Below are positions 11,532 through 35,662 of a stretch of 64,000 nt of DNA, in pieces. This DNA comes from Caulobacter sp. (GTDB lineage: Bacteria; Pseudomonadota; Alphaproteobacteria; Caulobacterales; Caulobacteraceae): assembly GCA_017745235.1 (NCBI GenBank), contig JAGHZU010000003.1, forward strand, positions 190,465 through 254,464, given 5' to 3'. Positions within the stretch are counted from its first letter, which is position 1. Each line of letters begins with the position of its first letter. Below the pieces are notes generated by a model. It worked only from the letters and a program-made list of their open reading frames with translations, searched no databases and was not told the DNA's origin. A program made the position numbers and the translations under genes.

Positions 11532-11535
11532 AGCC

Positions 11536-12522
11536 CTAGTCGACCACCAACACTGCGGCGCCGGCGAAGGCGCCGTCGCGCAAATCGGCGAGCGCCTGAG
11601 CGGCTTGGCGGAGCCGGTAAGTCTTCACATGAGCTTTCACACCAGCGAGCATTGCGCGCGGCAGATAATCACGCGCGTCGGCACGCGTCAGATTGGCGAC
11701 CGACACCAGGCGCCGTTCGCCCCAGAGGTCAGCGTAGTCCATGGCGGGGATCCGGCTCATATGAATCCCGCCGCAGACAACCGTCCCGCCCTTGCGCACC
11801 GCGCGCAGAGCCAGGGGCACCAGATCGCCTGAGGGAGCAAACAGGATGGCCGCGTCAAGCGGTTCCGGCGGCGGCGCGAACGAAGCGCCAGCCCACAAAC
11901 AACCGGTCTCCAGCGCCAGGTTCTGGGCCGCCTGGTCACCGGCCTTGGTGAAGGCGTAGACTTTCTGCCCCTCGGCCCGGGCCATCTGCGCCAGAAGATG
12001 CGCCGCCGCGCCGAAGCCATAGAGACCAAGCCGCTGAACACGGCCGGGATCTCCGGCCATCCTCCAGGCGCGATATCCGATCAGCCCGGCGCAGAGGAGC
12101 GGCGCCAGATCGACATCCGCCGGCCCATCGGGAAGGGGCAGGCAGAATCGGGCGTCGGCGACCAGCTTTTGGGCGTAGCCGCCGTCGCGGTTCCAGCCGG
12201 TGAAGGTCGGGGCGTCGCAAAGGTTCTCGGCGCCTTGGCGGCAGTAGGGGCAATGGCCGCAGGTTGAACCCAGCCACGCCACGCCTACACGCTGGCCGAT
12301 GTCGAAATCCCGCACGCCGGCGCCCAGCTCGGCGACCTCCCCGACCACCTCGTGACCGGGCACGATCGGTCCTCGCAACGGCAGATCGCCGTCGAGAAGG
12401 TGCAGGTCCGTGCGGCAGACTCCACAGGCACGGACACGCACCAGAACCTCCCCGGCGCCCGGGCGAGGCGTCGGACGCAGGACAGGCGACAAGCGCCTGT
12501 CCTGGATCACCATGGCCAGCAT
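11536..12522 (-). CDS. Zn-dependent alcohol dehydrogenase family protein
   Basis: [23 protein letters not shown]...C and [11 protein letters not shown]. Confidence 0.92.
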
Positions 12523-20078: not shown

Positions 20079-20684
20079 TTACTGCAACTGCGCCGACGCC
20101 CTGCCATGAAGCTCGGCTACCCGCCGTTCAACCGACGCGGCCTTGTTGAAGACGTCGACGGCGTTCTGAGTAAACCAGCCCTCGGTAACGATCGGGCTCG
20201 ATGTCATATTGGCCATCTCGAACTGGGCCGCGCGTCGCTCGGCCACGACGATCATCATGCTTTGCAGGTTGAAGACCGCCGTCGCCAGGATCGGATCGTC
20301 TAACTCCGACACCTTCAGCTCGCTCAGCACCTTCATCGACAGCGTCAAAGGCCCCTGCTCTTCCAGCGCCACGAAATTCTTGAGGCTGAGGTTCTTGCCT
20401 TCGACGGCGCGCTGGACCGCTTGGAAGGACTGTAGGACCCATCGCGCGCTGGAGGCGGCGTTTTCGTAGATCCGCCTTTTGGAATCCTGGGCCTGCCGCG
20501 TGATGAAGCGTTCCTGGAGCCAGGCCGCGGCGAAGACCGCGGCGGCGGCGAAGATGGCCTGGGCCCAAGCCGCCACCGTCGAGCCAAACAGGCTGTTGTC
20601 CTTGGCGGTGGCTCCGCCGAGGAAATAGCCGACGATCGCCACAGCGACCATCAACACAAGGACGGGACGAGACAACTTGACCAT
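20079..20684 (-). CDS. Hypothetical protein with two N-terminal membrane helices
   Basis: 201 aa; hydrophobic segments near residues 7-24 and 36-55. Confidence 0.6.
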   Translation of the reverse strand: MVKLSRPVLVLMVAVAIVGYFLGGATAKDNSLFGSTVAAWAQAIFAAAAVFAAAWLQERFITRQAQDSKRRIYENAASSARWVLQSFQAVQRAVEGKNLSLKNFVALEEQGPLTLSMKVLSELKVSELDDPILATAVFNLQSMMIVVAERRAAQFEMANMTSSPIVTEGWFTQNAVDVFNKAASVERRVAELHGRASAQLQ

Positions 20685-20693
20685 GATCTAAGC

Positions 20694-22082
20694 TTGGCCG
20701 AACAGCGTTCGCAAATCCACCCTCCCGCTGTTGTCGGTCACGGACGCTCCGCCCTCCCCGACAACGCCAGGACCGCAATCAGGAGCAAGAGCTTGGCCGA
20801 GGCGATGTTCAGCGAAATCTACGCCAACACTCCCGAGACCGACTACACGCTCAGCTTTTTCATGAAAGCGGCCCACGGCGCTGAGACCGCGACCCTGGCC
20901 TGCCCCTTCTTCACCAACTACCCGGCGGTGAAGCTGCTGACGGAGCAGGGCTGTGAGGTCAAACTGTTGGTGCGCCTGTGTCACGCCACGACGCCGGACG
21001 CCCTGCGCCAGGCGCTGGCTGATCCGCTCGTCAGCGTGAAGTTTTTCACGGGCCGGCGGTTTCACGCCAAGTTCTACATCGTCGACGATCGTGCGCTGGT
21101 CGGCTCGGCCAACCTGACGGGCGCGGGGCTGGGCGACAATCGGGAGCTGTCGATCCTGTTGACGCGGCAGGCCGACGAGGCGTTTGCCGAGCTTCCTGGT
21201 CTGTTCGATGAGCTCTACGACAGTGCCGATCAGCTCGACATGGTCGCCCTCACGGCGTTCGAGCAAGCGCTGCGCCGCCAGCCGCCGTCCTTCGCGGACG
21301 AAGACTTCGAGAAGACGCTGACCAGCCTTATCCCCGCCGCCGAACCGCGTAGCACGATCGTCGGCAGTGGCCGAAAGTCTAAGGTCCGCGCGTTCCTTCA
21401 GCGCTTCAAGACGCGCTACGACAAGCTTGGCCGCGCGCTGGGGGAGATCGAGGAGCGGTTTCGCGCCGACCAACGCCGCCGGCCCGAGTTCGACGGCGGG
21501 GAACTGGATATCGAGATCAGTCGATTCCTGGGCTGGGTGCGGGTCGCGCATGCGCCCGGCGACACCTGGTCGACCCAACCCCTATTAGAGCGCGGTGGAC
21601 GGCGCGCGCGCATTGAAGAGCTGATGGACCTATGGTTCGCCACCGACGACATCACCCGGGGCGACATGATCTATGCCGAGCGTGAACTGAGCAACATCGA
21701 GCGGATCCGGACGAATTTCGCCACGCCCCAGGCGATCGAGGCCCTCAGCTATGACGAGGTCTTCGACACGCTCAGCGGCTGCCATGCGTTCTATGAGCTG
21801 CTGCGGTTCACCAAAGGAAGCATTGAGGGCTTGCGAGCCCAGTTTTCCCAACTCAACGCCCTGCCCAAGATCCAACGCAGCCTCATCTACCTGCTGCACG
21901 GGCGCGACCCCATCGATCCCCTCGCCCGAGCCTATGACTGCCTCAACGATAAGACCTATCGGCTTCGGCGGTTTGGAGAGTCATGCACAATGGAGCTGTT
22001 GGGCTGGATGGAGCGTGACCGTCACCCGATCAATGGCCGGACGATCCGAGCGCTGCGCTACCTTGGCTTTGACGTTTCCTAG
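20694..22082 (+). CDS. Phospholipase D-family (HKD) nuclease, restriction-enzyme-like (start may be ATG 20805)
   Basis: Single RFHAKFYIVDDRALVGSANLT...NRE motif, as in BfiI/NgoFVII/DrmC-type PLD nucleases; long unknown C-domain. Confidence 0.85.
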   Translation: MAEQRSQIHPPAVVGHGRSALPDNARTAIRSKSLAEAMFSEIYANTPETDYTLSFFMKAAHGAETATLACPFFTNYPAVKLLTEQGCEVKLLVRLCHATTPDALRQALADPLVSVKFFTGRRFHAKFYIVDDRALVGSANLTGAGLGDNRELSILLTRQADEAFAELPGLFDELYDSADQLDMVALTAFEQALRRQPPSFADEDFEKTLTSLIPAAEPRSTIVGSGRKSKVRAFLQRFKTRYDKLGRALGEIEERFRADQRRRPEFDGGELDIEISRFLGWVRVAHAPGDTWSTQPLLERGGRRARIEELMDLWFATDDITRGDMIYAERELSNIERIRTNFATPQAIEALSYDEVFDTLSGCHAFYELLRFTKGSIEGLRAQFSQLNALPKIQRSLIYLLHGRDPIDPLARAYDCLNDKTYRLRRFGESCTMELLGWMERDRHPINGRTIRALRYLGFDVS

Positions 22083-22125
22083 GCCTGGGATAAAGCCGTC
22101 CGTACCCGTATTGCGATGTGATCGA

Positions 22126-23493
22126 TCAGCCAGCCAATTGTGAGGGGCTCGACGGCGTCAGCCCGTTTACTGCCGGGAACACCCGGTTTGTTCGCCCCAG
22201 GGCGGCCATCAACGTCAGGTGAGCCCGCCAGCCGCGATACTCGGCGTCGTCATCGATCCCCAACGCGCGATCTCCAGCCGGCGTAAAGCGCATCAGTTGC
22301 TCGCTGATGCCTTGCCGGCCGAAGATCCAGCAGCCGATCCGATGCCGCGAGAGCATGACGCACAGACGGCCGGCGTCGAGATGAAACGCCGTTGCGTCGG
22401 CGCGGCCTGACAGCGGATGATGCACGAACATAAAGGGCCGCTCGATGCCCTGGAAGCGGTTGGCGGTCTCCACAAAAACCCCGCCCAGATGCGCGCCAAG
22501 TCGCTCGCGCACCGCGTTAACCTGACTCACGTGCGCGCAGACCACGCCGATCTTGTCGGGTGTGACTTCCGACACCTGACCATCGTCGCTCATCCAGGCG
22601 CGACGACGCAGCAGGCGCTCGATCGAGGCGACAAGCTCTTGTGCAAGCTCGCCGTCAGCTTCGCCCGTAGTCTGCGGCGGCAGTTCGACCATCACGATGG
22701 ATGCGCCGGTCGTGACTGCGTCGAGCGCCGCGTCGAACGGCATAATCCCAGCGGCTTCAAATCGGATGGAGCGGTTTCGGCTCATCGCCTGGAACGACAT
22801 GTCGGGATAGAAGGCGGGCTGCACCAAGCTGACAGTGTCTGCGTTAAGCCGGCGGGAAATCGGCAGGTTCAGCTGCAGCACGCTCGGATGACGCCGCACC
22901 AGGGCCGCCGGACAAGACACCTGCGGACCGGAAGGGTCACACCGCCAACGCTCGATCTCGCAGTTCACAAACGGATCGATCTGGCCCGGATCGCCGATCA
23001 AAACGTGCCGCGGCGCAAGGTTCGAGATCAACTGGAACCGGTAGTCGGGTAGCTGGAAAGCTTCATCGACGATCTGGACGTCAAAGCAGGCCTCCGTTGT
23101 CTGAATCCACGACCACTTCGCCGCGTTGCCGATCGTGATCGACGGTTGACGCGGAAGATTGGCGACGTCGTTGACGACGACCAAGTTCGACAGCTGGCGC
23201 ACATCATCCGGGAGATTGAGGTCGCGCTTAGCGAATAGATGGATTGGCATCGAGCGCGCGTTCGCCGCAAGCCGCCGGGTCAAGTCGAAGGCCTGCTCGT
23301 TGGTCTGGGTGACCACCATGCAGCGCTGATCCAGCAACGTCGCGCTCTGCAAAGCCACCCGTTGCGCCACCCCGGTCTTGCCCGCGCCTGGGGGCGACCG
23401 CAAGACAAGCGCCGGTTCCCCCTGCCATTGACTGGCCAGGACCCGCTCAAGCGCGGCATTTGCAACAGCTTCGGGATCAAGAGGCTCATTCAT
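22126..23493 (-). CDS. Superfamily 1B (Dna2/Upf1-like) helicase/ATPase
   Basis: SPPGAGKT Walker A, IVDEAFQ Walker B, LIGDPGQ motif III, ETANRFQG motif V, VMLSRHR motif VI. Confidence 0.88.
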   Translation of the reverse strand: MNEPLDPEAVANAALERVLASQWQGEPALVLRSPPGAGKTGVAQRVALQSATLLDQRCMVVTQTNEQAFDLTRRLAANARSMPIHLFAKRDLNLPDDVRQLSNLVVVNDVANLPRQPSITIGNAAKWSWIQTTEACFDVQIVDEAFQLPDYRFQLISNLAPRHVLIGDPGQIDPFVNCEIERWRCDPSGPQVSCPAALVRRHPSVLQLNLPISRRLNADTVSLVQPAFYPDMSFQAMSRNRSIRFEAAGIMPFDAALDAVTTGASIVMVELPPQTTGEADGELAQELVASIERLLRRRAWMSDDGQVSEVTPDKIGVVCAHVSQVNAVRERLGAHLGGVFVETANRFQGIERPFMFVHHPLSGRADATAFHLDAGRLCVMLSRHRIGCWIFGRQGISEQLMRFTPAGDRALGIDDDAEYRGWRAHLTLMAALGRTNRVFPAVNGLTPSSPSQLAG

Positions 23494-24920
23494 GTGAGAT
23501 CCTCGACGACCGCGAGCAGGTTAGACGGCATCGGCCGACTCAACGGTGTCGGCGCGGGCAACGCACCACTATGGGTCCATGGCGGATTGGCGAGTCGGGC
23601 GCTCATCTGGCCAAGTTCACGGCCCATGCTTTTCCATTTTGGCGCTTCAGGACCAAAATCGAAGCTGTCGTTCCGGGCAATGCGCTTGGCGGCGTTTTTT
23701 CCCTCAAGCACCATACCTGTAATCCAGGTGAAGGGTCCACGGCGTTCGACCTGGTCGATGCGGATCGAGAGCTTAGGATCGTCCAGGGTCCAAAGGACGT
23801 CGCCAATGCGCAGGTGCAGGCTGTCCTGATCGCTGTTGAGAACAAGCTGATACTCGAAGAGCTTCGGCCGGATACGCTCTTCAAAGACGTCGACCACGTG
23901 GACCCGCAGCACGCTGCCGTTCACAACGCCTCGCTCGCGGGCGGCGTGGTCATGACGGAGTTTCCCCGAGTCGACGTTCGAGACCGCCCGCTCGCGGGCG
24001 ACGATCTTCATCACGCCGGCCTTGGGCGAGTCGTGGTAGGGAAGAAAGTGCCCTTCGGCGCGCGCCGCCATGAACCGCTCGAACTCTTGGGCTTCCTGTT
24101 CGGCAAATTCGTCTAGCGCCCGGTTCGCCGTCCAGCGCGGAGCCATCAGCAACGCCATAGCCCGCTGGGTCGCCGTGTAGATCGGGCGAATGACCCCTTC
24201 CAGCATTTGCTGGATGCGGCTCTGGTGAAAAGCGATCTCACTAGCAGAGCTCGCTTTATGAAAACCCTCGATGGCCGGCTGGAGGTAGTTTCGGTCGAAC
24301 TGAGGGTCGGTCTTCGCCCCCATGGGCTGGGCTTCGGCGGCCGCGACCGCTGCGAAAATGTCGCGCCCCGGCGGTGGCTCGATCCAGGTCAGAAGCGAGC
24401 CCAGATGCTCGTCCTCTGACTCTTGTTGGCCTGTCGCGTAATGCAGACGCAGCGCCCCACTGGCGCTGATCAGGGCCTGTTGGCCCGCAACGGGCGAGCG
24501 CTCACCGGCATAGGTCCAAAGAGTGCCTAGACGTTGGATATCGGGCTCGTCGGTGAAGCGGAGGCGGTCGGCCAGGGTGTCGAGATGGCCGAGCGCCCCG
24601 GTGGAGGAGACCCAGATCTGCGGGAAGGTCCCGTTGGCGCGACACTCGGCGTAGTATGTTTCGAAGTGCGGAAGCAGCCAGCGCAGCAAAGCGTACTGAT
24701 CATCGCGGCGGCGGGGATCGGCCACGACCTGAATCTGCGCGGGCTCGCCAAACCGTCCCAGGGCGGCGGCATGGACGGAGGTATCCTCCCCTGCCATAGA
24801 CAGCAGTGTGAGAATTCGCGCATGCGGCTGAATGACGACCTGGCGCTGCAAAACGACCGGCACGGCCTGACCGCGTTGCAAGGCGCGCAAGCGCGCGGCT
24901 ACTTGAATGAGGTCAGCCAT
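23490..24920 (-). CDS. Conserved hypothetical protein coupled to the helicase
   Basis: ATG 24920 overlaps the upstream stop (ATGGCTGA); its stop overlaps the helicase ATG (ATGA). Confidence 0.75.
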   Translation of the reverse strand: MADLIQVAARLRALQRGQAVPVVLQRQVVIQPHARILTLLSMAGEDTSVHAAALGRFGEPAQIQVVADPRRRDDQYALLRWLLPHFETYYAECRANGTFPQIWVSSTGALGHLDTLADRLRFTDEPDIQRLGTLWTYAGERSPVAGQQALISASGALRLHYATGQQESEDEHLGSLLTWIEPPPGRDIFAAVAAAEAQPMGAKTDPQFDRNYLQPAIEGFHKASSASEIAFHQSRIQQMLEGVIRPIYTATQRAMALLMAPRWTANRALDEFAEQEAQEFERFMAARAEGHFLPYHDSPKAGVMKIVARERAVSNVDSGKLRHDHAARERGVVNGSVLRVHVVDVFEERIRPKLFEYQLVLNSDQDSLHLRIGDVLWTLDDPKLSIRIDQVERRGPFTWITGMVLEGKNAAKRIARNDSFDFGPEAPKWKSMGRELGQMSARLANPPWTHSGALPAPTPLSRPMPSNLLAVVEDLT

Positions 24921-26019
24921 TGGCGATCCGATCAAGCACCAGGGAGGCGGCCCGAAGTTCCGCTGACAGGGCTTCTTCGGCTCTGTTGGCCGGGGGGCGA
25001 CCACGCCCATCGAGGAGGTCAAATGCGCGGGCGATGGACCCAGCGGCGGCCAACTGTTCGGCTGCTAGATCGCCAAGAATGATGGGTTGGCCCGCCGCGA
25101 GCGCTTGGCCGCGGCAGCGCTCCCATAGCGCACAGTGTTCCTTGCAGTTCGAACGATAGTTGTTGGGTAACTGCTCGATCACATTGGGGTCGGCGAAGGT
25201 CGCGCCCGCAGGGACAAGCTGTTCCACCTCGTCCAGGTCGGCGGGGGCCGTCGACAGGGCTCGCACCAGCGAGGCCAGCTCAGCCTCGGCGCGCATCGAT
25301 GCGAAGAGACGTGGATTGAAGGATCCAGGGGCGCGAAGCACCATGTCCACCCGATCGCCCGCGAGATCGGCGTCACCGCCCCGCCTTGCAATATGCTGGC
25401 GAAGCGCCAGCGTGCCGACAGCGGCCTCACGGCACGCGGCACGAATATCCGACCGATCGGTCTTGCCGCCCCGGTCGGCGAACGACTTGATCACGCCGAC
25501 TTGGTAGAAGCGCGCGTCGTCGCTGGCCACGAGGTAGTCGAGTTCGATGGCGTGAGTGACGCCAACGAGCTCTAGCGTTAATCGCGGATTCAAGATCAGA
25601 TTGGGCGCGAGCGGGTTACCATCCAGCTTGAGGTCGATCAGGCGCCGCGTTTCAAGTTCGCGCCGGTTACGGGCTACGACGTCATCAACCGAAGTGATAT
25701 CGGCGACTGACGAGATTTTCACTTCATGCTGAGCCAGAAGGCCCTTTTCGCGATAGGCGGTCAGCAGCGAAGAGCCGCCATTGCCCAGCAGGCGGCGTTC
25801 GAAGGCCTGGGTCAGTGTCATCGCGAACGGCGACATATTGTCGGGATCGCCGTGAAAGATGAGCTTGATGACCGCGGTTGGGGTCAGGCCAGCAATCACG
25901 ATCGCCCGAAGGCGGGTGCAGCCCGCGTTGCGCGCCACGCTCTCAATGCCGCGGGCTCCGACCTCAACGGCCGGAATGCCACCACGCAGCCGAGCGAGAC
26001 GTGCATTTTCTGGGGTCAC
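24913..26019 (-). CDS. Hypothetical protein, candidate Fe-S-staple PD-(D/E)XK (Cas4/AddB-like) nuclease
   Basis: N-terminal Cys (NAGCTR), central ELDYLV...VIKSF, C-terminal CKEHCALWERC; GTGA overlap with upstream gene. Confidence 0.6.
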   Translation of the reverse strand: MTPENARLARLRGGIPAVEVGARGIESVARNAGCTRLRAIVIAGLTPTAVIKLIFHGDPDNMSPFAMTLTQAFERRLLGNGGSSLLTAYREKGLLAQHEVKISSVADITSVDDVVARNRRELETRRLIDLKLDGNPLAPNLILNPRLTLELVGVTHAIELDYLVASDDARFYQVGVIKSFADRGGKTDRSDIRAACREAAVGTLALRQHIARRGGDADLAGDRVDMVLRAPGSFNPRLFASMRAEAELASLVRALSTAPADLDEVEQLVPAGATFADPNVIEQLPNNYRSNCKEHCALWERCRGQALAAGQPIILGDLAAEQLAAAGSIARAFDLLDGRGRPPANRAEEALSAELRAASLVLDRIANG

Positions 26020-26876
26020 CGAACAGCCCTCTCAATCGTGTCGGTGTCCACCAACAGAGGTCTGCCCCACAGCTTCAGATGAGCGCTGCTCGACGAGAGC
26101 TTGGCCGCCGCAGCGCGCCGCTCTTCGAGATCGGGGCCTTCGAGCAAGGCCAGCTCGCCATGGGCCGCGTCGACGGTTCGGCTCGTGTCGATCGCCTGGC
26201 CGGTTTCCATGGCGCCGGGAATCGACCGAGCGAACGGAAAGAGCAACCGCTCGACGCTCTTGGCCTCGGTCGCTCCGGTCTCTCTCAGCCGAGCTAGACG
26301 GCCGGCAAGACTGATCGCGATCCGAAGATTGTCCGTGCGGATGCTGCGAGACCCGATGATGCGACGCTCGACGTCCCAGGAGGAGCTCGTGAGCAGTCTT
26401 GGAATCGCCGTCAGCTGCGCCGCGCTGATCGCTGGCACGACCCAGGCTGGACGCGCCGCCAGATTGCGGCGTGCTGCGTTCTCCTCGTCACGTCTCAGGC
26501 TCGCGAAACGCGACGGCGACGGCCGGTTACCGGTGAGCGCTGCGGTGAGGTCGGCAATCAACGCCGGCGCCGCCGGCACGCCAAGATCGTCCAGCGCATC
26601 TAAGGCCAGCTCGCGAAGCGGCTTGCCTGGGCGTCGCGATCGAGGCGTGGCGATGTCACGCGCCTCAAGCTCACTGAACCTCAAGGCGTCCGAAAGGCGC
26701 TGATATTCCGCGCTCAACTCGGTGATCTTCGCCTGGGCGCGCTCGCGCCCGGCGGAATCGTTCGCCCCCAGGGCCTTCGTCAGGTCAGCATAGGCTTCCT
26801 GCTGGCGCTTGGCGTTGCGCACGAGTTGATCAGCAAGGGAGAGCGGGCGAGACATGTTATTTACATACTCTTCCAC
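26016..26876 (-). CDS. Conserved hypothetical protein (first gene of four-gene cassette)
   Basis: 286 aa; coiled-coil N-terminus and FASLRRDE...RRIIG segment. Confidence 0.75.
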   Translation of the reverse strand: MEEYVNNMSRPLSLADQLVRNAKRQQEAYADLTKALGANDSAGRERAQAKITELSAEYQRLSDALRFSELEARDIATPRSRRPGKPLRELALDALDDLGVPAAPALIADLTAALTGNRPSPSRFASLRRDEENAARRNLAARPAWVVPAISAAQLTAIPRLLTSSSWDVERRIIGSRSIRTDNLRIAISLAGRLARLRETGATEAKSVERLLFPFARSIPGAMETGQAIDTSRTVDAAHGELALLEGPDLEERRAAAAKLSSSSAHLKLWGRPLLVDTDTIERAVR

Positions 26877-26966
26877 GCTCTTCCATGCAATACCATGCCT
26901 GAAGACATTGGACGTGCGGACGCCAAGCGGCCCCCCCCACGCTCGACTGCCGCAGAAGCGACCTGA

Positions 26967-28316
26967 CTATTTAATGAAGCAAAGCACCGACTCGGTGGCG
27001 CCGGTCGGGCGCACATAAGTGCGACGCCCGGGATTGATGTCCGACATCGAATGCAGGTGGAAGTCTTCGCGTTGACTCAAGCGTAGACCGTGCTGGACGC
27101 CCATCTCACAGATAATTTTGGGCAAGTCGTTGTGCAGGTCCTTGTAGTAGGAATCTTGGACTACAAGCACCGCCCGCCCACCAGCCTTCAACCCAGTCGA
27201 CATCCGCTCCATTGAGCGTGACATTTTATCAAAATAGTCGAGATGAGTACGGTAGTAATAACCGGCTGACGCCTTCGACGGATGCGCCCTCAAGGCTTTG
27301 AGGAAACGCGCGCAAGTCTTTCCCCACTTGTCGCTGACCTCGATAGGCGCGCCTGGCACCTGGGTCGTTCCGATCATCTGCCTACCCAAAGCCCGCGCTT
27401 CGGTCTTCAGAAGCGGCCCGAGGACTGCCAGCTCAATCCGAGTCGCCGCAGTGTAGTCAATTCTCGTGCAGTAAGGCGGGGACGTGAGCACGAAATCGAT
27501 GCTCTCGGCCGCCAACTTCATCGAAACGGTGTCGGACAGATTGATCTTGCACTCGCCAGCCCGAGGCAAGTCTGGAATGAGAAGGTCGGCATCCTGTTTG
27601 GCTGCAAGCGCCGCTGACATCCCGCGAACATTTTCGGCGAAATAGCGAGCGACCGTGATTTGTGGGACCGCGATTTTCGTTTCGGTCGACTTAGGTACTC
27701 GCAGCCATGTGGGATTAGAAGATTTGAACGGCGCGACCAGCCTGCGGCAGGCGGCGAACAGCGCGACATAGAGCGTGGCTGCCGTGCCCGAGATCTTGTC
27801 CAGGTGAACGCCGTCGGGCGACTTGGTCATGCTCCCGACGAGGCTGCGACGGATATTTTGCTCGATGCCACGGATAAACGCAGCGACGCCAGGCTCAAAC
27901 CAGCCCAGTAACGGGTCGTCCTCCGCCAGCGTCGGCGGCGTAGCCCGGGAATGAAGTAGTATCGTCGCCGCGAGGGGGCGTAAGTGATCTGCTTCGCTCG
28001 ACGGCAGCAGCCGCGCGCGCGCGACGATGATCATAACTGGGTTAAGGTCGATACCCATCGAGCTGAAACCCAGCGTGCTGGCGGCATAGGTCGTCGTGCC
28101 GCTGCCATTCCAGGGGTCCAGGACGACCGCCCCGTGCGGCAGCTTTGCGCTTTGCAAAAGTTCCCGCGCGAAAAGTTCCGGATACCCTGCATAATATGGG
28201 AAAAAGCCCTCCCACCCCGTCTGAAGGCGCTTATTGCGCTTTGGCGAAAGGATGTTGAGTTTCGCCGCTCGCGGTGATGGCGCCCTGCCCGCCTTTTTGA
28301 TCAGCCCCGCCGTCAT
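26967..28316 (-). CDS. Site-specific amino-DNA methyltransferase (probably N4-cytosine, alpha order)
   Basis: Motif I VLDPWNGSGTT near the N-terminus; motif IV LTSPPY in the C-terminal half. Confidence 0.88.
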   Translation of the reverse strand: MTAGLIKKAGRAPSPRAAKLNILSPKRNKRLQTGWEGFFPYYAGYPELFARELLQSAKLPHGAVVLDPWNGSGTTTYAASTLGFSSMGIDLNPVMIIVARARLLPSSEADHLRPLAATILLHSRATPPTLAEDDPLLGWFEPGVAAFIRGIEQNIRRSLVGSMTKSPDGVHLDKISGTAATLYVALFAACRRLVAPFKSSNPTWLRVPKSTETKIAVPQITVARYFAENVRGMSAALAAKQDADLLIPDLPRAGECKINLSDTVSMKLAAESIDFVLTSPPYCTRIDYTAATRIELAVLGPLLKTEARALGRQMIGTTQVPGAPIEVSDKWGKTCARFLKALRAHPSKASAGYYYRTHLDYFDKMSRSMERMSTGLKAGGRAVLVVQDSYYKDLHNDLPKIICEMGVQHGLRLSQREDFHLHSMSDINPGRRTYVRPTGATESVLCFIK

Positions 28317-28912
28317 GCGACTGCAAACCCGCGCTGGCGTCGCACCGTGATTTCTAGACGGATCAACTCTGCCGGCAGCACGGCGGACTGAAGCACCCCG
28401 ATCGGCAGCGTGCCCGATAGCGCCGAGAAGGCCCGATCATAGACGACGACGCAGCTACCCGTCGTCAGACGCGAATTGAACAAGATGCCATCGACATCTG
28501 GCATTTCGGCATGGACAGCCTCAGATAACATTTGCCCTGAAAGGTGATCACGGGCTCGGCTCGTGTCCGTATCGATGCCCAGCTCGTATGGCGCTGCGCC
28601 TGATAGATCGAGCAACGCGAGCTCACGGTCCGAGCTGATGGCGGTTACGCACAGTTGCTCAAGGTGAGGTCTGTATAGGAACCGCCTCATCCTGCCCTCG
28701 AACCGGTCGCGCACGACGGCTTCGGCGAACGCTGTGGAGAAATTGTCAGCCGCATACAGGACGCGAAAGGCGTTTGAAGGACTCGAGAACCGGCTCGATC
28801 CGAACCCCGCATCAGCCGGTGTCGCACGATGCCGAGTCGGCAAGATACGCGGCCAGTCTGCGATGCGGGCGTGGATGATCCGGTCACGGAGCTTGGAGGT
28901 GACAATTCTCAC
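28313..28912 (-). CDS. RES-domain toxin (NAD+ phosphorylase/ADP-ribosyltransferase family)
   Basis: SRFS, VLYAA...AFAEA and DGILFNSR (R-E-S residues); 4-bp overlap with the antitoxin. Confidence 0.85.
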   Translation of the reverse strand: MRIVTSKLRDRIIHARIADWPRILPTRHRATPADAGFGSSRFSSPSNAFRVLYAADNFSTAFAEAVVRDRFEGRMRRFLYRPHLEQLCVTAISSDRELALLDLSGAAPYELGIDTDTSRARDHLSGQMLSEAVHAEMPDVDGILFNSRLTTGSCVVVYDRAFSALSGTLPIGVLQSAVLPAELIRLEITVRRQRGFAVA

Positions 28913-29529
28913 GCGTAGTCGAACGCGCTCGCCGCCGCGCTAGTCACTGCGGGAACATCGCCATCACGAAGCGCTTCAACGGGTGGCTTTCCGCCGGTCA
29001 TACGATTGGGAGCGACCAACCACTCCCAGGCCTCTTCATCCGATGTGAAAAAGGCGGCGACAACATCGAGCCCGTCAACTGGCCTGCGTCGCTCGAACTG
29101 CCGCAGTGGATAGACAAAATTTCGAAGGCCTTTGCGGAGAGCGATGATCTTTTTCGCCTTGCGCCAATTATCAAGCGTGCCGCGCGAAATGCTCAGCTGT
29201 TCCACCAGTTCGCCCGCTCCAACGAGTTCGCTCTCGATCCAATCGGCCGATTCATCATCAACCGTGATCGCATCCAGCAACCTTCCTCCCTCGGCCGCCG
29301 AGACGACGGGCCCAACGCCGCTGCCCTGGAGAATTTTGCTCTCGCGCGCCGGAGTCCGGACGAACGGCTTTCGCTCGCGCCCGCTAAGCGCCTTGGCTGC
29401 TGCGGGCACAGGCACTTTTAAGGTGCTGGCAAGTTCGATCAAGCCGGCCATATCCATGCGCTCGACCTTGCTTTCAATCGCCCTCGTCAATGCGACGCGA
29501 CCAGGGTGGGCCTGCTTTGCGGTGCTCAT
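28909..29529 (-). CDS. Xre/MbcA/ParS-like antitoxin
   Basis: HTH (ISRGTLDNWRK) plus C-terminal AWEWLVAPNRMTGGKPPVEAL motif. Confidence 0.85.
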   Translation of the reverse strand: MSTAKQAHPGRVALTRAIESKVERMDMAGLIELASTLKVPVPAAAKALSGRERKPFVRTPARESKILQGSGVGPVVSAAEGGRLLDAITVDDESADWIESELVGAGELVEQLSISRGTLDNWRKAKKIIALRKGLRNFVYPLRQFERRRPVDGLDVVAAFFTSDEEAWEWLVAPNRMTGGKPPVEALRDGDVPAVTSAAASAFDYA

Positions 29530-29677
29530 GACTCATCCTCCACTTGGCAGAATAGGCAACTTAGGCAGAATATACAATAACTAGAATATCCTGCTTGGGA
29601 TCCGGGCGAGGCGACGGGCCGCACCCAAGGGGCTCGACCATAAGAAGTCCGCAGCCAACTTCATCGTCCCGGCAGAG

Positions 29678-31408
29678 CTATATGCCGTCGAGGTCCAGTT
29701 GCGTCAGCCGATCATAACCAGACCATTCGCCGTGCTCGAAAGATGGCGAGCCTATCGGCCAGCCCGCGGTCTGCCATAGACGATCAAAGCCGTCCTGGAG
29801 CGGTCCGGCGAGCTTGTCGCGTAAGTTTGGGATCTGGATTGTCGGCAAGCCTAGATCCGGCAAAAGCATCCTTCGCGGGGCGGCCAGATCACCTTGCCGC
29901 AGCGCCACCTCATGCATGCCATTGAACGACACCTGGACCAAGGCTGGGCCATCGAAGCCAAGATCCAAGGCGATGGCGGCCATCCGCTCGAGGTTCGTGA
30001 CCGCAAGCTGCTCGAGGGCGAGCCCGTCGATGTCTATTGCGGCGTCGGCCTGTGTTTGTCGGCCAATCCGCGCTTGAAACTCCAGGTCGCCAGGCCGAAC
30101 GAGCCGCATACGCCATGGCGTCTCGGGGCTGTGCAAGGGTTGAGGGCGAACCCTCGGCCCACAACTCCACCACTGGCGGCCGTCGACACCCGTCTCGACC
30201 GCCTGGGTCGTCGGCGGCGCAAACTTAGCCTGGACCTTGACGATCCGTTTGGGATCGAGACGGGTGTGATCTCGGGCCGCCAGGGGCGCCAACCGGACGG
30301 TCAGGCGCGGCGTCTGAACGATTTCAGGCAGCGCGCCACGGTGAGGATCCGCCGCCATCTCATAGAGAGCGTTGGCCGCTTCCTGTACCCGAGGATCTGG
30401 CTCGACCTCCTTGAGCGCGTCGTCGAGGGCAACCCGAAGTCTGGCTGAGGCCAGGCGTTCAAAGGCGTCCAAGGCGTCGGCAAGTTCCGTCGAACGCAGA
30501 TTGAGCCGTTTGATCGCATCAAGGGTGGAACGTTGCAGCCCCAGCTGAACATCTTGGTCCGTCCTTGGCCAGGCCATCTCGGTGTTGCGATCCATCGCGT
30601 GGGTTCGTTCTAGCAGCAGCTCTTCGAAGGCACCTGCCTTCGCGCGCATGGCGCTGAATGCGGCTTGCACTTCAGGATCATGAAACTCGTACCTCGCTCC
30701 CGACCAGGTCGCCGTCATTTCGAACAGCGGCTCCACCGTTGCGCGCCGATAGGGCTCTCCGAAATTGTGTGTGCGCAGAAGGTCCCGAAGACCGTCCGGG
30801 AACTGGCGATGCGCGCGTCCCAGTAGACCGACGTCGTGCGGATGGGGTTCTACAGGCGCCGCCGGCTTCAGCTGCGCGTGAACCTCGGGATCGTCCAGGA
30901 CTAGCCGGATCGCCTTGGCCAAATCTCGAGTGAGCCCGTCTTTTGCCGTCCGGCGCTGTTCCGCGGTGGCGTCGTGTGGGCAATCAAAGAAGATCGGCCC
31001 CTTGGCATGGCGAAGATCGAACGGCAGCTCGTGCGTTTTTGGATGCCCCATGGCTGTGTTCATCACCGAGATCACGCGACGCCAGGTTAGGGATTTGAGC
31101 GCCCAACCGTGCTCAATGCTGACATTGGGGTTGGGGGTGCCGCCGCCACCCGGCCGAAAGCCGACATAGGTCATGTCCGAAACGAACAGAAGCGCACCGT
31201 CGATCTTACGAAAGATCGTCTCGACGATAGGCGGCGACCCGCCAATGCCTTGGGTATCGCTGTCGACGGCGATTTCCCGATGAGCCGCATCGATCGCTGC
31301 ATCGGCCTTGAGTTTCGCGATCGCGTCCCCCAGCGCCTGGTGGATCAAGAACCGACCAATGGCTCCTCGTGTGTCGCTCTGCCACGAAAAGAAGATCTGG
31401 TGGGGCAT
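29678..31408 (-). CDS. TIR-like/nucleoside-deoxyribosyltransferase-fold domain protein with long unknown C-terminus
   Basis: IFFSWQSD...GSPPIVETIFRKID...FVSDMT...NPNVSIEHGWA...LPFDLRH; start placed at ATG 31408. Confidence 0.72.
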   Translation of the reverse strand: MPHQIFFSWQSDTRGAIGRFLIHQALGDAIAKLKADAAIDAAHREIAVDSDTQGIGGSPPIVETIFRKIDGALLFVSDMTYVGFRPGGGGTPNPNVSIEHGWALKSLTWRRVISVMNTAMGHPKTHELPFDLRHAKGPIFFDCPHDATAEQRRTAKDGLTRDLAKAIRLVLDDPEVHAQLKPAAPVEPHPHDVGLLGRAHRQFPDGLRDLLRTHNFGEPYRRATVEPLFEMTATWSGARYEFHDPEVQAAFSAMRAKAGAFEELLLERTHAMDRNTEMAWPRTDQDVQLGLQRSTLDAIKRLNLRSTELADALDAFERLASARLRVALDDALKEVEPDPRVQEAANALYEMAADPHRGALPEIVQTPRLTVRLAPLAARDHTRLDPKRIVKVQAKFAPPTTQAVETGVDGRQWWSCGPRVRPQPLHSPETPWRMRLVRPGDLEFQARIGRQTQADAAIDIDGLALEQLAVTNLERMAAIALDLGFDGPALVQVSFNGMHEVALRQGDLAAPRRMLLPDLGLPTIQIPNLRDKLAGPLQDGFDRLWQTAGWPIGSPSFEHGEWSGYDRLTQLDLDGI

Positions 31409-31492
31409 CGTCGCCTTCGAAACTCGGACCGCCACCGTGCAAACCGCCGCCCACCATTGCAAGTCATGAGCGCCTCGATCAACGCCTTTAGA

Positions 31493-31717
31493 TCAGCCGG
31501 CGCCGCGCTTGCGACCGCGCGTGAAGCCGCGATCGCTTTCCATGAAGCGCCCAACCATCGGCACGATCAGCTTTCCCGGCTCGGCGACCTTGGAATTGGT
31601 CTCGGCCGCCAGTTGCTTGCCGTATTCGATCAGATCGCGGTGCATGGCCGCCGGCAATTCCACCGTGATCTTCACGGGCGTGTCGTCTTCGATAGGACCC
31701 AGTTTCAGCTTGCTCAT
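31493..31717 (-). CDS. DUF2274 family protein
   Basis: MSKLKLGPIEDDTPVKITVELPA...RFMESDRGF, in its usual position after trbI. Confidence 0.85.
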   Translation of the reverse strand: MSKLKLGPIEDDTPVKITVELPAAMHRDLIEYGKQLAAETNSKVAEPGKLIVPMVGRFMESDRGFTRGRKRGAG

Positions 31718-32880
31718 CGGCGGCTCTCCGCGGCGTAGGGTTCAAGGACAAGATCGCGCGTCAGCAGCACACGCAGCGGCGCGCCGGGGCGAATGGTCAG
31801 GGTTGGGGTCAAAGACAGGCCGCGCCCGACGATCTGCTGGCCAACGTCGCTGGCCGTTTGGCTCGCGCCGCGTCGCACCGCGCGGCTCAGATCGTCGTCA
31901 CCCGAGGAGCCGGCCTCGGCCCCGACCGCCAGCACCGTGCTGAGACCGGCCGCGGCCCAGACGCGGCTCCAGTGGCGATCGACACCATCCTTGAGACCTG
32001 CCTGGCCCTGCGGATCGGCGGCCGGAAGTTTGTCCAGCACGATCGAGCGCCCCGACGGCAGGATCAGTCGTGTCCAAGCCACCCCCAACCGGCTCTGGCC
32101 GTCGACTGTCGCGGTCGCATACTCGCCGATCAGCCGGGCTCCGGCCGGGATGAGCAGAAAGCCTCCGCTCAGACTGTCATGAACGTCTTGGGTTACCTGC
32201 GCTATGGCCACGCCCGTCGCGTCCGATCGAAGACCGGTCACCAGGGCTGCGGGAATGATCGACCCGGCCTGCAGCAGGTAAGGCGAGGCCGGCGACTGAA
32301 GCCGCTCGGGGCTGGTGAGACGCGCGTCCTCGACCAAGTCGCCATGCTCCGATGCGGCCGCTGCCGGAGCGGTCGTCGGAGCGCCAACGGGTCGCGATGT
32401 TTTCAGGAAGACATCGCTCTGCCGGGCGGCGACAAGTTCCGCGCGCCGCGCTTGCACGACAGGATCGATCGGCGCCGGCGGCTGGTCGAGAGAATGAACG
32501 GACGGGGCAGCCGAATCCGTGATCGATGCGCCCGACGTCTGGCCACCCTGGACCTGGGCGCTAAGGATCGGCCGGCCCAGATCCCCCGGAAGTGGAGGCC
32601 CGAGGATCGGCGGCGCGCCGCGCTGAAGGTAGTCCTTGGGCAGGGTGCTGATCTTTTCGGGCGGCGGCGGGCTCTGCGGCGCGGCCTCCTGCGGTATCTT
32701 CTTCGGGTGCTCGGTCAACGACCATCCGATGGCGCCGGCCAGCCCCGCCGACAACACCGCGCCCGCAACGATCAAGGCTTTGCGCGAGACCCGCGCGACG
32801 GGGGCCGGCGCGCCGCGCAGGCGAAGATCCTTGGCGATGGCCTGTTGTTCGCGTTCGATCGGCGACTGAGGCGCGCTCAT
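31714..32880 (-). CDS. trbI: TrbI/VirB10
   Basis: LLQAGSIIPAALVTG...AQVTQDV...LIGEY...LTIRPG. Confidence 0.92.
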   Translation of the reverse strand: MSAPQSPIEREQQAIAKDLRLRGAPAPVARVSRKALIVAGAVLSAGLAGAIGWSLTEHPKKIPQEAAPQSPPPPEKISTLPKDYLQRGAPPILGPPLPGDLGRPILSAQVQGGQTSGASITDSAAPSVHSLDQPPAPIDPVVQARRAELVAARQSDVFLKTSRPVGAPTTAPAAAASEHGDLVEDARLTSPERLQSPASPYLLQAGSIIPAALVTGLRSDATGVAIAQVTQDVHDSLSGGFLLIPAGARLIGEYATATVDGQSRLGVAWTRLILPSGRSIVLDKLPAADPQGQAGLKDGVDRHWSRVWAAAGLSTVLAVGAEAGSSGDDDLSRAVRRGASQTASDVGQQIVGRGLSLTPTLTIRPGAPLRVLLTRDLVLEPYAAESRR

Positions 32881-33671
32881 CGACGCACCTCCCCGCGCAT
32901 GGTCGTGCGCTCGATCCGGACGTGGCGCGCGGCTTTACCCACGCCGAGTCGCAATTCTGCCGCCTGGAAAAGGCGATCGACGACCAAGACACGGCCATCG
33001 ACGCGGTAGTTGACGAGTTCGGCGGCCTCGCCGTCAGCTCCTACGAGAAACAGCGGCGGCAAGTCCGAGAGCACCGCCGTCGGCGGGAATTCCAGATAGG
33101 TGCGTGCGCCGTCATCCCAGACCCGACTGGGCCTGAACGAACCTCGCCCGTGGAGCCGATAGGCCAGGTTCAGGCGCGGCGCCGGCGGGGTCGCCGCCGC
33201 CGCGGACGTCACCGGCGGATCGGGAGGCGTCGGCGCCAGGACCGTCACCGGCGCGGACAAAGGCGCGGGATAGCGCCAGCGCACCTGGGTCAGGAAGGCA
33301 CGGTTGGAGGCCCGAAGCTCCAGGAAGTAGGTTCGCCGCGTGGTGTTGATGACCAGGTTGGTCGCCAGATCCCCCGCCGTGGGCTTGACGAGAATATGGA
33401 CGCGCCGGGTCTCCCCTGCCCCGCTGATGGTGTCGCCGAAGATCCAGCGCGCGGTGTCGCCAGCCGCGATCGGATTGACCTCGACAAGGGTTTCGCCTGG
33501 CTCGAGCGCGATGTCGGTCAGTCGGCCTGGCGCGGCGACCAGCGGATAGACGCTGCGCTCCTCGAACGGAAACTCCACGGGAGCGGCAGCCAGCGGCGAT
33601 CGCGTCGCCGCAGCCTGAGCGCCTGGCCCCACGACCATTGCCGCCAGGAGTGTGCAAGCCAGCGACCTCAT
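32877..33671 (-). CDS. trbG: TrbG/VirB9
   Basis: TDIALEPGE, AGDTARW, NLVINTTRRTY, VWDDG and LVNYRV; start ATG 33671. Confidence 0.9.
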   Translation of the reverse strand: MRSLACTLLAAMVVGPGAQAAATRSPLAAAPVEFPFEERSVYPLVAAPGRLTDIALEPGETLVEVNPIAAGDTARWIFGDTISGAGETRRVHILVKPTAGDLATNLVINTTRRTYFLELRASNRAFLTQVRWRYPAPLSAPVTVLAPTPPDPPVTSAAAATPPAPRLNLAYRLHGRGSFRPSRVWDDGARTYLEFPPTAVLSDLPPLFLVGADGEAAELVNYRVDGRVLVVDRLFQAAELRLGVGKAARHVRIERTTMRGEVRR

Positions 33672-34354
33672 GCGCCGTACTCCCGCGACCAGTTGATCGC
33701 CTTGATCCGCACGCCCAGGCCGTTGGCCAAGACCTCCTTGTCGGTCTTGGGCTTGCGCAGTTCGACCGTCAGGATCGCGGCCCAGTGCTCTGTAGCCTGC
33801 AGTTGCCCGTTGGCGTAGCGTCGCTCGATCCAAGTCGTTCGGAAGCTGCTCGGCGAGGCGCGCAGCACGCTGGTGACTTCCACCGCGACCTGCAGCTTAC
33901 CGATCTGGCTCGTCAGCTGGACGGCCTCGGCATAGTCGGTGATGTAGCGGGCGGCATCGCCTTCGGCATAGGCATAGGCGCGATCCCAGGCCTTTCCGAC
34001 CACGACGGGATCGCTGGAGATCGAGCGGACGTCCTCGACAAAACGACCAAGCGCCGCGCGCACTTGAGCGTCGGTCGGTGCATAGCCCTTGTCAGCGGGG
34101 CCGACCGCCTGGATCTGCCCCTGCCGATCGACCTGAACGACCCACGGGGTGATAGTCCCCTGCGCGGAGAGCCAGGCCAGGGCCCCGGCCAATCCCCCGC
34201 TCAGGGTGAGAAGGCCCAAGGCCATCAGGCGCCAGTTGGCGGCCTGAACACGCACGGTGCCTTCTCGGTCGTCCCAGGCCTGGCCGGCGCGCTGGTAGGG
34301 GGTTTCGGGCGGGGGCGTCAGGCCGTAGCGTGGCGCGCCCTTGAACGGGTTCAT
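33668..34354 (-). CDS. trbF: TrbF/VirB8
   Basis: YGLTPPPETPYQRAGQAWDDREG...NWRL. Confidence 0.92.
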   Translation of the reverse strand: MNPFKGAPRYGLTPPPETPYQRAGQAWDDREGTVRVQAANWRLMALGLLTLSGGLAGALAWLSAQGTITPWVVQVDRQGQIQAVGPADKGYAPTDAQVRAALGRFVEDVRSISSDPVVVGKAWDRAYAYAEGDAARYITDYAEAVQLTSQIGKLQVAVEVTSVLRASPSSFRTTWIERRYANGQLQATEHWAAILTVELRKPKTDKEVLANGLGVRIKAINWSREYGA

Positions 34355-34360
34355 GGCTTA

Positions 34361-35662
34361 CTACTCCGAAAGTGAAGGGGATGCGCCGGCGCTGTGATCG
34401 TCGCCGCTGGCCAGGGCGTGGGCCGTCAGGCTCGCGCCATGCGCCAGCTGCTGGTGATGCTTCAGCTCACGAGCCCAGCGCGGCGCCGCGCTGGCCTGAA
34501 CGTCGGTCTCGGCCGCGCCATTCGCCGATGATCCTGTCTCCCCGCTCGGCGCCGTGGCGCCGCCGCCGCTCGCGCGCTTGGCTGTCTTCGGTTCAGGAGC
34601 GGCCTCGTCGTTGGCCGGAGAAGGCGTGGCGGCCGGCGCGGAAGGCGGACGCGAGGGCGGGACGGGGTCATTGGCCGGCGACGGCGGTGGGTTGCCGCCG
34701 CCATCGTTGCCGCCAGGCGGCGGGCGGCCGCCACCGGCCAAGGCAGCCTTCGCCGCCAAGCCAGCGCCAGTTCCCACAGCCATCTGAGTGACCGCCGCCC
34801 CGGCGACGGCGAGACCGCCGACAGTAAGGCCCGTGCCGACCGCCGCGCCCAAGCCTAGTTGCGGTGCGCCCGACATCAGGCCCGAGGCGATGCTGGGACA
34901 GAAGATCGACAGGCCGAGCAGAACGAGGCTGGCCAGCACCAAGGCGAGCACCTGCTCCAAGGTCGGCTGACCACCTTGCCAAGTCTGCACGAACTGATCG
35001 AACAGCGTCGAGCCGATGCCGACGACGACCGCCAGAGCCATCACCTTGACGCCGGTGGCGATCACCGCCCCCAGCACCCGCTCGGCCATGAAGGCGGTGC
35101 GGCCGAACAGGCCGAAGGGCACGAGGGCGAAGCCGATCAGGGTCGAGATCTTGAATTCGATCAGGACGACGAAGACTTGGACCGCCATCACGAAAAAGGC
35201 GACGATCACCAGCAGAAAGGCGACCAGCAGAACCAGGATCTGGACGAGGTTCTCGAACACGCCCGGCCAGCCCGCCAGCTCGCCGGCCGCTTCCAGCAAC
35301 GGCTTGCCGGCGGAGATGCCGAGCGCGGCCAGCTTGCCCGGTCGCAGGATGTCTTCGGCCGAGAGCCCAGAGCCAGCAGCCTTCAAGCCAAGCCCGGTGA
35401 AGCTCTCCAGCACGATGGTCGACAGCGTGTGGAAGTTGCCGATCAGGAAGGCGAAGAAACCGACATAGAGGACCTTGCGGATCAGGCGGGCCAGCACGTC
35501 CTCGCCGGCGGCCAGACTCCACATCAGGGCCGCCAGGGTCATGTCTATGGCGACCAGGATATTGGCCACCGCGCCGACGTCCCCGCCGAGCAAGCCAAAG
35601 CCGCTGTCGATGTAGCGATTGAAGGTGGCGAAGAAGGTGTCGATGACGCCGGTGTCGTTCAT
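34361..35662 (-). CDS. trbL: TrbL/VirB6
   Basis: MNDTGVIDTF...YIDSGFGLLGGDV, multi-pass membrane core, low-complexity tail. Confidence 0.92.
   Translation of the reverse strand: MNDTGVIDTFFATFNRYIDSGFGLLGGDVGAVANILVAIDMTLAALMWSLAAGEDVLARLIRKVLYVGFFAFLIGNFHTLSTIVLESFTGLGLKAAGSGLSAEDILRPGKLAALGISAGKPLLEAAGELAGWPGVFENLVQILVLLVAFLLVIVAFFVMAVQVFVVLIEFKISTLIGFALVPFGLFGRTAFMAERVLGAVIATGVKVMALAVVVGIGSTLFDQFVQTWQGGQPTLEQVLALVLASLVLLGLSIFCPSIASGLMSGAPQLGLGAAVGTGLTVGGLAVAGAAVTQMAVGTGAGLAAKAALAGGGRPPPGGNDGGGNPPPSPANDPVPPSRPPSAPAATPSPANDEAAPEPKTAKRASGGGATAPSGETGSSANGAAETDVQASAAPRWARELKHHQQLAHGASLTAHALASGDDHSAGASPSLSE

Follow-up and report, generated by a model that had tools for sequence, protein, structure and literature searches.

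We analyzed a 64,000-nucleotide stretch of DNA from Caulobacter sp. (GenBank assembly GCA_017745235.1, contig JAGHZU010000003.1, positions 190,465 to 254,464 of the forward strand), referred to here as the window, for a group of defense-like genes. An earlier note on this DNA had grouped an amino-methyltransferase (methylase), a four-gene helicase cassette, and a PLD nuclease as a possible six-gene system with a DISARM-like logic. All six genes were found where that note had placed them, by scans with Pfam, PADLOC, and NCBIfam and by a check of the open reading frames (ORFs). Comparison with related loci points to a different grouping, in which the methylase and the four-gene cassette, whose products we call A, B, C, and D, form a seven-gene module together with an Xre-RES gene pair, and in which the PLD gene belongs to a separate cassette.

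The seven genes of the module all lie on the minus strand. The first is an Xre/MbcA/ParS-type antitoxin of 206 amino acids (28909..29529; Pfam Xre-MbcA-ParS_M, 1.9e-13, and Xre_MbcA_ParS_C, 1.9e-4), which is followed by a RES-domain toxin of 199 amino acids (28313..28912; Pfam RES, 9.7e-21) and by the methylase, encoded in an ORF of 449 codons (26967..28316; Pfam N6_N4_Mtase, 3.1e-11; PADLOC MTase_II, 3.5e-18). The RES gene overlaps the antitoxin gene and the methylase gene by 4 bp each. After a gap of about 90 to 130 bp come the conserved orphan A, with about 279 amino acids (26016..26855); B, with 368 amino acids and a predicted Cas4/RecB-type PD-(D/E)xK fold (24913..26019); C, with 476 amino acids and predicted stalk helices and a six-stranded β-barrel (23490..24920); and the superfamily 1 (SF1) helicase D, with 455 amino acids (22126..23493; Pfam AAA_12, 3.5e-9, AAA_19, AAA_30, and AAA_11). 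The A/B, B/C, and C/D overlaps measure 4 to 8 bp. The module is made up of two transcription blocks, the translationally coupled Xre-RES-methylase block and the A-B-C-D block. A scan for promoter and terminator consensus sequences found nothing that exceeded shuffled expectation.

The G+C content of the region from 20 to 30 kb is 63%. The ORFs of the module and the PLD ORF have conserved homologues of full length elsewhere, which marks them as genuine genes rather than open frames that arise by chance in such sequence. Two of the starts deserve comment. The first seven codons of the A ORF are probably untranslated, since stop codons occur at this place in two orthologues, and the true start of C is Met35 of a 510-amino-acid ORF, because its homologues have 476 to 480 amino acids.

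We compared 26 loci from distinct species, 55 metagenome loci, and six loci obtained by exact look-up; the content of the loci was scored by tblastn and grouped on a tree of the C protein with 71 rows. Homologues of C are uncommon; they fall into 196 clusters at 90% identity in a word search and into 715 clusters at 50% identity in a full profile search of 1.8 billion proteins, and almost all have 470 to 500 amino acids. DNA similarity between the window and the 26 loci from different species is confined to positions 22145 to 29585 and consists of two blocks, one with A-B-C-D (22204 to 26898) and one with methylase, RES, and Xre (26970 to 29277). These limits delineate what we predict to be a mobile module of ~7.4 kb at ~22145 to 29585, composed of Xre, RES, methylase, A, B, C, and D.

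In the methylase, motif I (DPWNGSGTT) precedes motif IV (SPPY), which places the enzyme in the alpha class. Forty orthologues show no variation in either catalytic motif, and most orthologues have 434 amino acids. No classical restriction endonuclease adjoins the gene, as had been stated before; directly upstream lies instead the Xre-RES pair, which the earlier note had left out. An Xre/MbcA/ParS antitoxin whose C-terminal domain is of the toxin-binding kind is encoded ahead of the RES toxin, the arrangement that characterizes RES-Xre type II toxin-antitoxin (TA) systems, and the two genes are predicted to form such a pair. On the minus strand before the Xre start are direct repeats TATTCTGCC at 29571 to 29563 and 29553 to 29545, both with the core ATTCTGCC, and the related repeat ATATTCTAG is also found just upstream of the antitoxin start (region 29530 to 29600). 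The repeats TATTCTGCC and ATATTCTAG are a possible Xre operator.

The alpha-class SPPY methylase adjoins A-B-C-D in 41 of the 56 informative loci, which span many genera. The C tree divides into two halves. In the half that holds the window (49 rows; support, 100/98), the methylase stands beside A-B-C-D in 44 of the 45 loci with enough flanking sequence, and a clade of 37 rows inside that half, window included, also carries Xre-RES. Xre, RES, and methylase occur together in all 33 clade I loci with enough flank. The RES orthologues are 62 to 79% identical and occupy the same position in L001 to L017 and L031 to L033, and D orthologues are 72 to 86% identical in all clade I loci. In a Mantel comparison of pairwise distances, C and methylase correlate with an r of 0.976 and C and D with an r of 0.986; when the comparison is restricted to clade I, the coefficients become 0.94 and 0.95, respectively. 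Three methylase homologues were also found on contigs outside the listed C hits, and A-B-C-D lies beside all three. The co-occurrence of methylase and cassette that had been predicted from the window is thereby borne out.

The linkage also persists through rearrangement. The methylase block has been inverted independently at least three times (in the group of L011 to L017, in L033, and in L021), and two loci have insertions between the methylase and A (L035 and L057), with adjacency kept in every case. The insert of L035 (4120 to 5938) consists of GmrSD_N and HEPN genes; that of L057 measures ~1.9 kb and lies between ~5200 and 7069. The sole methylase-less member of the methylase-linked half is L019, in which helicase D (11443 to 12354) ends after residue 251, and this copy looks to be decaying. 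By these sequence comparisons, the methylase is a lineage-specific yet very stable partner of A-B-C-D.

Many loci of the other, methylase-less half carry other methylases nearby, namely, XhoI-type methylases, HsdM, and a methylase of 994 amino acids. In seven rows, A-B-C-D is followed by an XhoI-type methylase and an endonuclease, and further rows adjoin a type I restriction-modification (R-M) system, the 994-amino-acid methylase, or a UvrD-PD-(D/E)xK helicase-nuclease. In an Acidobacteria-centered clade (L020, L024, L034, L038, L040, and L042), an N6_N4 methylase of the beta class and an endonuclease of the XhoI family always stand 3′ of D; this placement reflects either synteny kept by descent or an exchange of the methylase partner. 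Another methylase-less clade has an AddA-like protein with a UvrD helicase and a PD-(D/E)xK nuclease (920 to 1,150 amino acids) after D (L051, 8097 to 15193; L052, 11861 to 14677; L073, 9547 to 12990). It is accompanied in L051 by an unannotated protein of 443 amino acids and the 994-amino-acid methylase and is fused in L073 to an M78 peptidase domain.

None of A, B, and C matched Pfam, PADLOC, or NCBIfam even at an E value of ≤1 when all alignment members were scanned, and searches of their profiles against PDB sequences gave noise only. The AlphaFold2 model of B (pLDDT, 82.8) has its best Foldseek matches in the PDB to MGME1, Cas4 SSO0001, Exo5, RecE, AdnAB, ACE1, lambda exonuclease, and AddB. 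Four cysteines of B, Cys34 and the C292-x3-C296-x5-C302 group, are invariant in 69 homologues, as is K178, and D167 is nearly so. A four-cysteine "iron-staple" nuclease signature has been described for AddB, Cas4, DNA2, and Bad (PMC7430649), and the model of B suggests a nuclease of this iron-staple Cas4/RecB type. The glutamate of the ExK motif is Val176 in the window copy (VxK). Val176 occurs in all 34 B proteins linked to Xre-RES and in L044, L047, and L053, and all methylase-less lineages have glutamate at this position; E159, D167, and K178 remain conserved. It may be that B is a weakened nuclease, or one with a rearranged active site, in the methylase-linked lineages specifically. A link between the ExK-to-VxK change and the gain of Xre-RES was ruled out, because L044, L047, and L053 have VxK without the TA pair.

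The AlphaFold2 model of C (pLDDT, 86.4) consists of an N-terminal α/β domain, long helices at residues ~299 to 334, and a six-stranded barrel at 338 to 423. Foldseek ranks Sen1 and SETX highest (E values, 7e-3 to 2e-2; probability, 1.0), and F1-ATPase, HerA, and T5 pb9 match in the barrel only. The N-terminal ~200 residues had no structural match in Foldseek; against viral structures, C gave small β-barrel matches only, none of them informative for the N-terminal domain. In a metagenome protein of 909 amino acids, P0453, an N-terminal part that resembles C in profile and BLAST comparisons is joined to a D-like helicase. P0453 is 33 to 36% identical to the window proteins, with 36% identity of its C-terminal part across all of D, and its sequence has the makeup of a natural C-D fusion. 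It was the only C-D fusion found, and no B-C-D fusion was found; in all of ~80 loci, B, C, and D are separate overlapping genes.

Protein D has the Walker A motif PPGAGKTG, the Walker B motif DEAFQ, and the motifs GDPGQ and QGIER; Aquarius, ZNFX1, and Sen1 are the nearest solved sequences. It is predicted to be the motor, in the form of a minimal superfamily 1B (SF1B) helicase core of the Upf1/Dna2-like kind. Protein A has an N-terminal coiled coil followed by a conserved domain with many invariant arginines and is kept in nearly all cassette loci; it had no match in Pfam, PADLOC, NCBIfam, or PDB sequence searches and is probably a DNA-recognition or regulatory subunit.

Because the gene order equals the domain order of DNA2 and Bad (nuclease, stalk/barrel, motor), B-C-D reads as a DNA2/Bad-like helicase-nuclease divided over three proteins, as far as the structural models allow. 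The same reading follows from the fold matches of B and C, the similarity of D to Upf1-like helicases, the four invariant cysteines in B, and the P0453 fusion. Judged by the architecture defined for Bad of Geobacillus stearothermophilus (PMC7430649), B has the RecB-family domain spanned by four iron-staple cysteines (Cys34, 292, 296, and 302), the iron itself being predicted, and C and D supply the stalk/barrel and the SF1B helicase that lie C-terminal to the nuclease. Shared with Bad and DNA2 would thus be the iron-staple nuclease, the stalk and barrel, and the SF1B 5′-3′ motor, in the order of B-C-D. In contrast to Bad and DNA2, which hold nuclease and helicase in one polypeptide, the enzyme of the module is spread over three translationally coupled genes; it is accompanied by protein A, the methylase, and the TA pair, C has an extra N-terminal domain, and the clade of the window has valine in place of the ExK glutamate. 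Outside the helicase motifs, no sequence similarity to Bad or DNA2 was detected, and in the fold search of C, Dna2 ranked only 18th, as a weak match.

The PLD gene behaves differently. It lies on the plus strand, convergent with D, in an ORF at 20694 to 22082 (Pfam PLDc_2, 5.5e-9, and PLDc). Its likely start at ~20793 gives 429 amino acids, as in its homologues, which form a family of stand-alone proteins of ~427 amino acids. The protein has a single HKD motif (HAKFYIVDDRALVGSAN) and a C-terminal domain of ~250 amino acids without a recognized fold. Its divergent neighbor, a gene for a 201-amino-acid protein (20079..20684, minus strand), moves with it and is likewise outside the module. Neither the PLD gene nor this neighbor occurs in any of the 56 informative cassette loci, which contradicts the expectation that the PLD nuclease accompanies the cassette elsewhere. 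PLD homologues lie beside CBASS in L027, a related conjugative element whose PLD protein is 95% identical, beside Wadjet in L028, and beside an MvaI/BcnI-Dcm-Vsr R-M system in L029 and L030. No A-B-C-D cassette is near any of them, and L027 lacks both cassette and methylase.

The comparison with L027 locates the boundary. Window positions 20079 to 22082, which hold the 201-amino-acid gene and the PLD gene, are 91.8% identical at the DNA level to L027 7294 to 9290, where this pair sits between CBASS and a trb operon. The trb genes give a second matching stretch, at 31508 to 35456 in the window, with 91% identity. Between the two stretches L027 shares nothing, and the first block stops exactly at the PLD stop codon, 22082. 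The 9.4 kb at 22083 to 31507, with the module and a further gene, and the PLD cassette are therefore separate cargo units. The PLD gene and its 201-amino-acid neighbor appear from this to be an independent mobile cassette of 2 kb, which lies beside the module only by co-location in a defense island, and the PLD protein is a candidate stand-alone (dimeric) single-HKD nuclease defense gene. The further gene, an ORF of 594 amino acids (29678 to 31462) between the module and the trb operon, had no Pfam, PADLOC, or NCBIfam match and is missing from all related loci and from L027; it is another independent cargo gene. Elsewhere in the window, an ARAGORN call at 59230 to 59322 ("tRNA-???," four-base anticodon tcgc) falls within long ORFs and is likely spurious.

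With respect to DISARM, a PADLOC scan of ten genes found no DrmA or DrmB match and Pfam found neither DUF1998 nor an SF2 helicase, in agreement with the absence of DrmA and DrmB noted before. The PLD protein matches DrmC models in its HKD motif alone (31.6 bits), with 30.9 bits for NCBIfam DISARM_DrmC_I against a cutoff of 133, and in PADLOC the methylase matches generic type II methyltransferase models, not Drm methylase models. DISARM likewise pairs a DNA methylase with a helicase-containing multigene effector and also has a PLD protein. It differs in its SF2 helicase DrmA and its DrmB (DUF1998), neither of which is in the module, whose helicase is SF1B; in its methylase, which probably belongs to another family; and in its PLD protein, since the PLD protein of the window does not co-occur with the module. 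Mokosh combines an SF1 helicase, MkoA, with the PLD protein MkoB, or has both fused in MkoC. D has generic SF1B similarity to MkoA (27.3 bits; 2.6e-7), confined to the C-terminal helicase part, the PLD protein had no MkoB match in PADLOC, and PLD and D are not found together elsewhere; a methylase, a Cas4-like nuclease, and the proteins A and C are all lacking in Mokosh. Identity with DISARM or Mokosh was thus rejected, in the absence of DrmA, DrmB, and MkoB and with the PLD gene unlinked.

Other systems resemble the module in part. Nhi and AddAB/AdnAB also combine a PD-(D/E)xK nuclease with an SF1 motor, and the nuclease domains of AddB and AdnAB are among the fold matches of B; these systems, however, consist of single or paired large polypeptides and have no dedicated methylase. 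PADLOC models of nuclease-helicase systems did not match A, B, or C. Type I, type III, and ISP R-M systems, of which types I and III are frequent neighbors of the cassette, follow the logic proposed for the module, that of a self methylase and a translocating motor-nuclease directed against nonself DNA. They use SF2 motors, whereas the motor of the module is SF1B, and the module differs further in its predicted Fe-S Cas4-type nuclease, in two proteins without a recognized fold, and in having methylase and effector in separate, invertible transcription units. For MADS (mad1 to mad8), there were weak generic matches of Xre to mad1 (E value, 0.0034) and of the methylase to mad2 (1.5e-6); A to D matched no mad model in PADLOC, and this identity was rejected as the mad3-to-mad8 set was not found. 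D also matched the C-terminal SF1B part of PLuB (NCBIfam NF040671, a helicase-like protein of 1,256 amino acids) with 52.6 bits against a cutoff of 999. No true PLuB was present in 401 genomes of the phylum and no literature on PLuB was found, and the lead was dropped as generic SF1B similarity only. We found no named system of this composition in the literature, and no PADLOC model, candidate systems included, fits A to C. The suggestion that the locus holds an undescribed multigene system thus stands for the methylase, with Xre-RES in the clade of the window, and A-B-C-D; it does not stand for a system with the PLD nuclease.

We consider it probable, at roughly 60%, that two mobile units, each independent of the other, lie here in the cargo of a conjugative element, namely, a seven-gene defense-like module with a split DNA2-like enzyme, a methylase, and Xre-RES, and the PLD cassette. 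Forty relatives of the host, among them 24 congeneric species, all lack the module. Neighbors of the cassette elsewhere include XhoI and type I and type III R-M systems, Gabija-like OLD and UvrD genes, GmrSD, AbiE, a KAP NTPase, a Schlafen-like helicase, and CHAT. This sporadic distribution, the position in conjugative-element cargo, and the defense genes nearby lead us to read the module as a horizontally moving defense module.

In the mechanism that we propose, the methylase would mark host DNA at a fixed motif, probably with N4-methylcytosine or N6-methyladenine. A complex of A, B, C, and D would load on unmarked incoming DNA and translocate in the 5′-3′ direction while cutting it, with B as the nuclease, C as a stalk/barrel accessory that carries a novel N-terminal domain, and D as the ATPase motor, so that the module as a whole would act much like a restriction system. 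Xre-RES would stabilize the module or provide an NAD-depleting backup, and Xre may time expression after transfer. Tentatively, the module could represent a new class of restriction-like immunity in which an SPPY methylase provides the self mark, the split DNA2-like Fe-S nuclease-motor is guided by A, the coupled RES toxin serves as an abortive-infection backup or entry timer, and the methylase partner (alpha-class SPPY, XhoI-type, or HsdM) has been swapped between lineages; we regard this fuller proposal as possible, well short of probable.

Several points weigh against the defense module as read here. Its role in defense, its methylation, and its nuclease activity are functions that we infer. 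The methylase-less half of the C tree makes up 22 of the 71 rows, and the existence of the A-B-C-D core without the methylase weakens a strict model in which methylation protects self. As the ExK glutamate is valine throughout the clade of the window, the nuclease activity of B may be weak or absent there. The Sen1 match spans just ~120 to 190 columns of C, Foldseek gave modest E values (1e-3 to 2e-2), and no fold could be assigned to A or to the N-terminal domain of C. P0453, finally, could be a gene-call merger from a frameshift at the ATGA overlap.

Some of these points feed the strongest alternative, that A-B-C-D works alone on DNA ends or replication intermediates, like Nhi, DNA2, and AddAB, and that Xre-RES-methylase is a hitchhiking selfish, addiction, or epigenetic unit. 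Sister clades have A-B-C-D without this methylase and with ExK intact, the two blocks are transcribed separately and can change their relative orientation, and the gap of 90 to 130 bp between methylase and A has room for a promoter of its own. Against this, methylase and C have diverged in step as tightly as C and D, and the methylase has been kept in 44 of 45 loci, with C down to 44% identity, through several rearrangements, a degree of transfer and rearrangement that mere hitchhiking rarely outlasts. The only locus that lost the methylase, moreover, has a truncated helicase. Codivergence and the L019 truncation thus argue against the methylase as a passenger, and we hold this alternative to be rather unlikely.

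An immune function is also at stake in the second alternative, in which A-B-C-D serves DNA repair, recombination, or maintenance of the conjugative element. Its relatives DNA2, AddAB, and AdnAB function in end resection, and the module is carried in conjugative-element cargo beside trb genes. Most loci, however, are not tied to conjugation genes, the distribution is sporadic, down to the absence from all 40 relatives, and the module is linked to a DNA methylase and surrounded by defense genes in most loci, which makes this explanation improbable. Most improbable by far is a single six-gene DISARM-like or Mokosh-like system of methylase, A-B-C-D, and PLD, because the PLD gene fails the test of co-occurrence that the methylase passes: its adjacency in the window, where the stop codons lie 44 bp apart, its weak matches to DrmC, ZacB, and DpdK around the HKD motif (E values, 3e-8 to 1e-5), and the weak match of D to MkoA are outweighed by its absence from the 56 cassette loci, by stand-alone homologues beside other defense systems, by a 92% identical cassette in another conjugative element that lacks the module, and by a DrmC score far below the cutoff with no DrmA, DrmB, or MkoB.

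The PLD gene shows that adjacency within a defense island is a poor guide to system membership, and with its 201-amino-acid neighbor it is now defined as a mobile cassette of its own. The C family, with ~700 clusters at 50% identity, is without annotation in Pfam, PADLOC, and NCBIfam. If the reading of the module as a defense system is true, it would add a new architecture for methylation-guided immunity, with an SF1B DNA2-like Fe-S effector in three subunits and two proteins without a recognized fold, and conjugative elements would carry this architecture between soil Alpha- and Betaproteobacteria. Studies of DNA2-type enzymes would, in addition, gain a bacterial model whose parts can be separated genetically.

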